Of a DNA stretch of 64,000 nucleotides, positions 48,644 to 48,762 are shown piece by piece (position 1 is the stretch's first letter; each line of letters begins with the position of its first letter). Made by a program: the position numbers and the translations under genes. Under the pieces are notes generated by a model that made no database searches, had not been told where the DNA came from, and worked only from the letters and a program-made list of their open reading frames with translations. The stretch is from Escherichia coli (GTDB lineage: Bacteria; Pseudomonadota; Gammaproteobacteria; Enterobacterales; Enterobacteriaceae): NCBI RefSeq assembly GCF_003334385.1, contig NZ_QOWN01000003.1, one strand, 5' to 3'.

Positions 48644-48688
48644 ATGAATGCTGCTATTTTCCGCTTCTTTTTTTACTTTAGCACCTGA
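48644..48688 (+). CDS. pheM: pheST operon leader peptide (Phe-rich attenuation peptide)
   Basis: atgaatgctgctattttccgcttctttttttactttagcacctga = [14 protein letters not shown]; five Phe codons. Confidence 0.9.
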
Positions 48689-48734
48689 ATCCAGGAGGCT
48701 AGCGCGTGAGAAGAGAAACGGAAAACAGCGCCTG

Positions 48735-48762
48735 AAAGCCTCCCAGTGGAGGCTTTTTTTGT
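48735..48762 (+). terminator. pheST attenuator terminator hairpin
   Basis: agcctcccagtggaggcttttttt directly downstream of pheM and upstream of pheS. Confidence 0.85.

Follow-up and report, generated by a model that had tools for sequence, protein, structure and literature searches.

Between rplT and pheS in the 64,000-nt stretch of Escherichia coli DNA analysed here (the window), a very short open reading frame (ORF) rich in phenylalanine codons is followed by a hairpin and a run of T residues. The question raised by this locus is whether these features form a leader that senses charged tRNA-Phe and so controls pheS and pheT, as had been proposed from the nucleotide sequence alone (the sequence-only reading), or whether they have some other explanation. 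The features on which the answer depends are collected in Table 1.

Table 1. Features of the rplT-pheT region, in order of position in the window
Feature	Position	Strand	Description
Post-rplT hairpin	48530-48554	+	11-bp stem, -15.6 kcal/mol, followed by a U-rich stretch
Putative pheST promoter	48577-48605	+	-35 TTGACT 48577-48582; 17-bp spacer; -10 TTCAAT 48600-48605
Shine-Dalgarno-like AAGGT	48629-48633	+	11 nt upstream of the pheM ATG
pheM leader ORF	48644-48688	+	14 sense codons plus TGA; five Phe codons
Protector (1:2)	48653-48729	+	Pyrimidine-rich strand with the Phe codons (48653-48682) pairs with purine-rich strand (48698-48729)
Antiterminator	48694-48743	+	GGAGGCUAG.GCGU (48694-48707) with GCGCCU...AGCCUCC (48728-48743); takes the terminator 5' arm
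Intrinsic terminator	48734-48760	+	Stem 48734-48743 with 48748-48757, 10 pairs (5 G-C); loop CAGU; U7
Dispersed repeat, 145 bp, with terminal inverted repeats	48780-48924	+	Between the attenuator and pheS, inside the read-through leader
pheS	48972-49955	+	TIGR00468, 401.8 bits (cut-off 237); RefSeq; first regulated structural gene
pheT	49970-52357	+	TIGR00472, 1009 bits (cut-off 403); RefSeq; follows pheS

Identity of the element upstream of pheS and pheT

The leader ORF consists of the codons ATG AAT GCT GCT ATT TTC CGC TTC TTT TTT TAC TTT AGC ACC TGA. Its Phe codons, TTC at 48659 and 48665 and TTT at 48668, 48671 and 48677, span 48659-48679, and the stop codon occupies 48686-48688; the 14-codon ORF with five Phe codons described in the sequence-only reading is thus present at the locus. 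Such an ORF is unique in the window, where only 1 of 754 short ATG ORFs (8-30 codons, both strands) contains five Phe within at most 14 codons, and the frequency of TTY triplets leads to a chance expectation of ∼0.1 for the entire 64,000 nt.

A search of 44000-54000 against Rfam matched RF01859 (Phe_leader) at 48638-48762 with a score of 75.0 bits (E = 1.1e-11), compared with a gathering score of 55. The match is full-length, spanning model positions 1-125 of 125, and agrees with the interval 48644-48762 that had been assigned to the element on first inspection. A 501-nt query comprising 48500-49000 was matched in all 5,426 of the 5,426 complete E. coli genomes in the collection, many at 100% identity, and the RefSeq features under those matches are "Phe leader region", "pheM: pheST operon leader peptide PheM", rplT and pheS. 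The peptide encoded by the ORF is RefSeq WP_001386830.1, which occupies the equivalent position in E. coli genomes showing 100% identity to 48500-49000. In the K-12-type strain ER1709 the gene order is thrS-infC-rpmI-rplT-pheM-pheS-pheT-ihfA-btuC. NCBIfam models locate rplT/L20 (TIGR01032) and ihfA/IHF-alpha (TIGR00987) in the window in addition to PheS and PheT, whose scores lie far over their cut-offs. These annotations bear out the name given earlier to the locus, pheM upstream of pheST; the distance from the ORF to pheS is 284 nt.

The element is almost certainly the E. coli pheM leader peptide together with a ribosome-mediated transcription attenuator of the trp/his/pheA class, which controls the pheS-pheT genes for phenylalanyl-tRNA synthetase (PheRS). 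This attenuator is already known, being present in RefSeq annotation, in Rfam and in the literature, and the analysis adds nothing on pheST regulation. The value of the case is mainly that of a positive control, in that a leader-peptide attenuator was correctly readable from raw sequence and the tools recovered all three alternative pheM structures plus their conservation.

Two observations concern neighbouring parts of the window. The infC frame, positioned from RefSeq, opens with ATT at 47276-47278 directly after the thrS stop codon (taaggtATTaaaggcggaaaacga), and this ATT presumably corresponds to the unusual AUU at which translation of IF3 is known to start. Downstream of pheT, 52603-52761 matches Rfam RF02082 (the enterobacterial sRNA STnc540) at 67.4 bits, the gathering score being 38; the match overlaps the 3' end of ihfA and a strong bidirectional terminator located between ihfA and btuC.

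Alternative structures of the leader and their exclusivity in silico

The 128-nt leader has a minimum free energy (MFE) of -53.7 kcal/mol, compared with -31.0 +/- 3.0 kcal/mol for dinucleotide shuffles (z = -7.5), and none of 200 shuffles folded as well. The MFE structure has two parts, a long, slightly interrupted protector helix and the terminator. The protector, a duplex of ∼30 bp capped by an apical hairpin at 48684-48695, folds alone at -37.3 kcal/mol. It takes up the Phe codons, the stretch being 90% paired in the MFE of the window sequence and 67-90% paired in other species. The hairpin and T-tract that had been reported to follow the ORF correspond to the stem at 48734-48757, which the terminator scan called and in which half of the pairs are G-C, and to seven T at 48754-48760, a run that overlaps the 3' arm of the terminator.

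The third structure arises from a duplication. The heptamer GGAGGCU occurs twice in the leader, at 48694-48700 and, within the terminator 3' arm, at 48749-48755. As either copy can pair with AGCCUCC at 48737-48743, the antiterminator and the terminator are mutually exclusive. When the segments are folded alone the antiterminator has an energy of -16 to -17 kcal/mol, compared with -14.9 kcal/mol for the terminator. Thus, an ORF with a run of Phe codons, a terminator, an antiterminator exclusive of it and a protector over the Phe codons, the features of a leader-peptide attenuator, are all present in silico.

The behaviour of these structures during translation was examined by folding in two ways. 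In an equilibrium test the complete leader was folded with ∼29 nt masked as the ribosome at each of the 15 codons; the terminator was never lost from these folds, whichever codon was masked. The switch is therefore visible only under a kinetic assumption, namely that folding occurs before the terminator 3' arm is made. In a nascent-chain test, in which the footprint size and the timing were assumed, the transcript was folded to 48747, the terminator 3' arm being not yet made. Whichever of the five Phe codons occupies the ribosomal A site, the best nascent fold pairs 48694-48707 with 48728-48743, which is the antiterminator. In the nascent fold without a ribosome the protector forms, AGCCUCC is free and the antiterminator is absent, while with a ribosome at the stop codon GGAGGCU at 48694-48700 is covered, and again AGCCUCC is free and the antiterminator absent. 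These predicted folds match classical attenuation, with termination in the absence of translation, termination upon unimpeded translation and read-through upon stalling. The alternative terminator and antiterminator folds expected from the sequence-only reading are present, but only when the RNA is folded as a nascent chain in which a ribosome occupies a Phe codon. The modelled structures are likewise consistent with its view that the element senses charged tRNA-Phe; control in vivo comes from the literature, where attenuation of pheMST is attributed to Springer et al. (1983, J Mol Biol 171:263, as cited in PMC9291695) and also to Trudel et al. (1984, as cited in PMC5371410).

These folds suggest a sequence of events for which we infer the promoter, the ribosome footprint and the timing. 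Transcription would start, probably, at the promoter around 48577-48605, and pheM would be translated while the RNA emerges. When Phe-tRNA-Phe is plentiful the ribosome would reach the stop codon at 48686-48688 and cover the antiterminator 5' strand at 48694-48700, leaving AGCCUCC (48737-48743) free, so that the terminator stem (48734-48757) and its U7 tract would form and transcription would stop. Were the leader untranslated, the protector (48653-48729) would form and the terminator would again be free to do so. When Phe-tRNA-Phe is scarce, by contrast, the ribosome would stall on one of the five Phe codons and occupy the protector 5' strand. The freed downstream strand, together with GGAGGCU at 48694-48700, would then pair with 48728-48743, the terminator 5' arm would already be sequestered when the 3' arm appears, and RNA polymerase would read into pheS-pheT. 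An RNA polymerase pause with a half-life of ∼25 s has been described within pheM; unlike the his and trp pauses, it is insensitive to NusA, and compensatory changes to the hairpin failed to restore it (PMC9291695). In a strain without 16S rRNA m2G966/m5C967, moderate repression of a pheM attenuator reporter was reported (PMC3831192).

The long duplex could instead be mainly an RNase III signal for processing or decay that sets the stability of the pheST mRNA, attenuation being secondary. The length of the protector (∼30 bp) and its stability (-37.3 kcal/mol) are consistent with such a signal. Furthermore, RNase III cuts inside the structure of the pheM attenuator in vitro, and an rnc mutant degrades the transcript more slowly than the wild type does (PMC5371410). 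The two roles are compatible, however, and the authors of that study call the cleavage turnover of the attenuator transcript (PMC5371410). A run of Phe codons and a duplicated GGAGGCU competing for AGCCUCC would, in addition, be purposeless in a pure processing site. It is thus very unlikely that processing is the main function of the duplex; RNase III processing is a documented extra layer on pheM and not an alternative to attenuation.

Conservation and covariation across Enterobacterales

The leader was compared among the relatives of E. coli through a PheS scan with one genome per species, which provided 80 loci, all from Enterobacterales (Escherichia to Yersinia, Dickeya, Edwardsiella and Serratia). 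Upstream of pheS, 78 of the 80 loci have a Phe-rich leader ORF; in the other two the sequence available before pheS is too short. Of these 78 genomes, 76 encode the core FRFFFYF. A MAFFT alignment (A1), in which the terminator was out of register in many rows and for which RNAalifold returned only a weak, partial consensus (-6.4 kcal/mol), was replaced by an alignment guided by a covariance model. The model was built from 10 gap-free leaders and applied with a search threshold of E <= 1e-12; the resulting alignment holds 74 distinct sequences, which come from 78 Enterobacterales genomes. Each locus contains exactly one strong match to the covariance model on the + strand (67-156 bits). Weak matches on the minus strand (22-36 bits, at 48653-48729, in most loci; 56 in the first alignment, A3) arise because the protector helix is a near-palindrome, and were rejected as artefacts that do not represent a second element.

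The terminated structure, evaluated over the 74 sequences, is supported by both complementarity and covariation. Standard pairs occupy 94.2% of its cells and nine pairs are changed on both sides. None of 500 shuffles equalled the observed values on any of five measures, and in slid controls 40-71% of cells are paired. In the protector 94% of cells are paired and compensatory changes of the type U-A/U-G/C-G and C-G/U-A are evident, although the pair at alignment columns 28/104 is non-standard in 39 of the 74 sequences. The terminator is 99.3% paired, with both-side changes in 4 of its 10 pairs. For the antiterminator, 94.3% of cells are paired (98.3% in the 7-bp core) compared with 28-67% in slid controls, but covariation is almost nil, the shuffles equalling the observed values in 165-286 of 500 trials on four of the five measures. 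The comparative support for the antiterminator is therefore one of conserved complementarity only, and AGCCUCC is conserved in any case as an arm of the terminator.

Folds of the individual sequences, which are independent of any alignment, lead to the same structures. The protector and the terminator are found in the MFE of all 74 distinct leaders. With a ribosome on a Phe codon, the 5' arm of the terminator pairs upstream in each of the 74; in 70 leaders 5-6 of 6 bases take part, and in the remaining four at least 3 do. The comparison with other enterobacterial pheM leaders thus came out in favour of the proposed attenuator, both the ORF core and the structures being kept across Enterobacterales.

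The same conservation might point to the peptide as the functional product, FRFFFYFS being a nascent arrest peptide or a trans-acting one, like TnaC, SecM and peTrpL, so that stalling would be programmed by sequence and not set by Phe-tRNA-Phe. The peptide is unusually conserved across Enterobacterales, including the non-Phe residues R7, Y11 and S13, and leader peptides of other systems have been suggested to act in trans (bioRxiv 10.1101/864512). The synonymous positions are constrained too, however, and where they are variable they change with their pairing partners. At codon 9, TTT or TTC varies with A or G in the partner (UA in 32, UG in 34 and CG in 7 sequences), and at codon 6, TTC or TTT varies with G or A (CG in 25, UA in 10). 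The only third position that varies freely, that of the Arg codon (CGC/CGT), is unpaired in the MFE. As the synonymous sites covary with their partners, the pattern points to the RNA and not the peptide as the object of constraint, and an arrest or trans role is not required; programmed stalling is a highly improbable explanation of the leader. To judge from these patterns of substitution, the near-invariance of the pheM peptide is, at least largely, a constraint on RNA.

Flanking sequences and relation to known systems

The stop codon of rplT, TAA, is at 48519-48521, and the leader starts only 123 nt downstream. The hairpin that follows rplT, in which a motif AGAGGGAGC...GCTCCCTCT is kept across Enterobacteriaceae in the upstream alignment, is probably the terminator of the upstream rpmI-rplT transcript. 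The terminator scan made no call at 48530-48554, probably because its rule for the T-run is unmet there. Between this hairpin and the leader, TTGAC-N17/18-TTCAAT is kept in most of the 79 aligned upstream regions and may act as the pheST promoter. A scan for the sigma-70 consensus called no promoter upstream of pheM, and TTGACT-17-TTCAAT was found by eye and by alignment; TTCAAT was missed since the scan accepts only A as the second base of the -10 hexamer. The heptanucleotide AAGGTAA is almost invariant in the upstream alignment, and the AAGGT that it contains is a candidate ribosome-binding site.

Variation in this upstream region was seen at a few loci. A few Enterobacteriaceae (loci L036, L038, L017, L031 and L044) lack the promoter-like TTGAC-17-TTCAAT ahead of the leader; in these the leader lies close behind the rplT hairpin, and transcription would have to come from upstream. 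E. coli CDE2901-yvys (L082) contains a 710-bp IS200C copy right after the rplT-distal hairpin, at a point equivalent to 48558/48559 of the window; the insertion sits 18 nt upstream of the pheST -35 hexamer, and so the promoter and the attenuator are intact.

The probability is close to nil that the hairpin and T-run are a plain terminator of the rpmI-rplT transcript, with an accidental Phe-rich ORF and no sensing: although no more than 123 nt separate the rplT stop codon from the element, and in L036, L038, L017 and L031 the leader, lacking the promoter-like stretch, would have to be reached from upstream transcription, rplT has its own hairpin, TTGAC-17-TTCAAT is conserved between rplT and pheM in most genomes, the in-frame Phe run (∼0.1 expected by chance) is preserved in all genomes whose upstream sequence is long enough, a simple terminator has no need of a protector and an antiterminator, and attenuation in vivo has been published (Springer 1983, as cited in PMC9291695).

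Downstream of the attenuator, and not part of it, the 5' untranslated region of pheS contains a 145-bp repeat. The element is bounded by the terminal inverted repeats GCCTGTCTCATCAGG and CCTGATGGGATAGGC and folds as a single long hairpin (-53.6 kcal/mol). It occurs at 1-8 places (median 5) in every complete E. coli genome, with 6 places in ER1709, and no RefSeq annotation lies under it among the 12 matches listed. In size and copy number it fits the RSA repeat of K-12, which is 150/151 bp long and has 6 occurrences (Table 1 of PMC5172473), a comparison made by description and not by sequence. Upstream of pheS the element is carried in most E. coli strains and missing in others, among them E. 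coli SCPM-O-B-8794 (L002). A match to a site that lacks it would span only 71% of the 501-nt query (48500-49000), and hence the 644 genomes in which coverage of this query is below 80% probably represent mostly empty sites. It is possible, though rather doubtful, that the repeat adds a second, strain-variable control of PheRS synthesis, acting on mRNA stability, RNase III cleavage or pheS translation. If so, E. coli lineages would differ in their pheST response once the attenuator has been passed.

Across the loci (L002-L081), pheS lies 156-481 nt from the pheM ATG, whereas the 125-nt attenuator hardly varies in length. Insertions and deletions seem to recur in the spacer that follows the pheM terminator.

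Among known systems, the closest is the E. coli K-12 pheM-pheST attenuator itself (RF01859), with which the peptide, the structures and the genomic position are identical; ER1709 is among the genomes that are 100% identical. No difference in the attenuator separates the two, and the allele in the window has the 145-bp repeat before pheS. T-box leaders, found in Firmicutes, serve the same aim as pheM, the read-through of a terminator before a synthetase gene in response to uncharged cognate tRNA. T-box RNAs bind uncharged tRNA directly and have no leader peptide. A T-box reading of the pheM leader was rejected, as 44000-54000 contains no Rfam match to a T-box at E <= 1. The leader does resemble trpL, hisL and the pheL leader of pheA, in all of which a run of cognate codons within a short leader ORF is combined with protector, antiterminator and terminator structures, the terminator preceding the structural genes. 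In contrast to these three, pheM controls an aminoacyl-tRNA synthetase operon and not a biosynthetic operon. It also differs in the position of the antiterminator 5' strand, which in pheM lies in the apical part of the protector just past the stop codon, so that, unlike in trpL, hisL and pheL, a ribosome at the stop codon would mask it directly.
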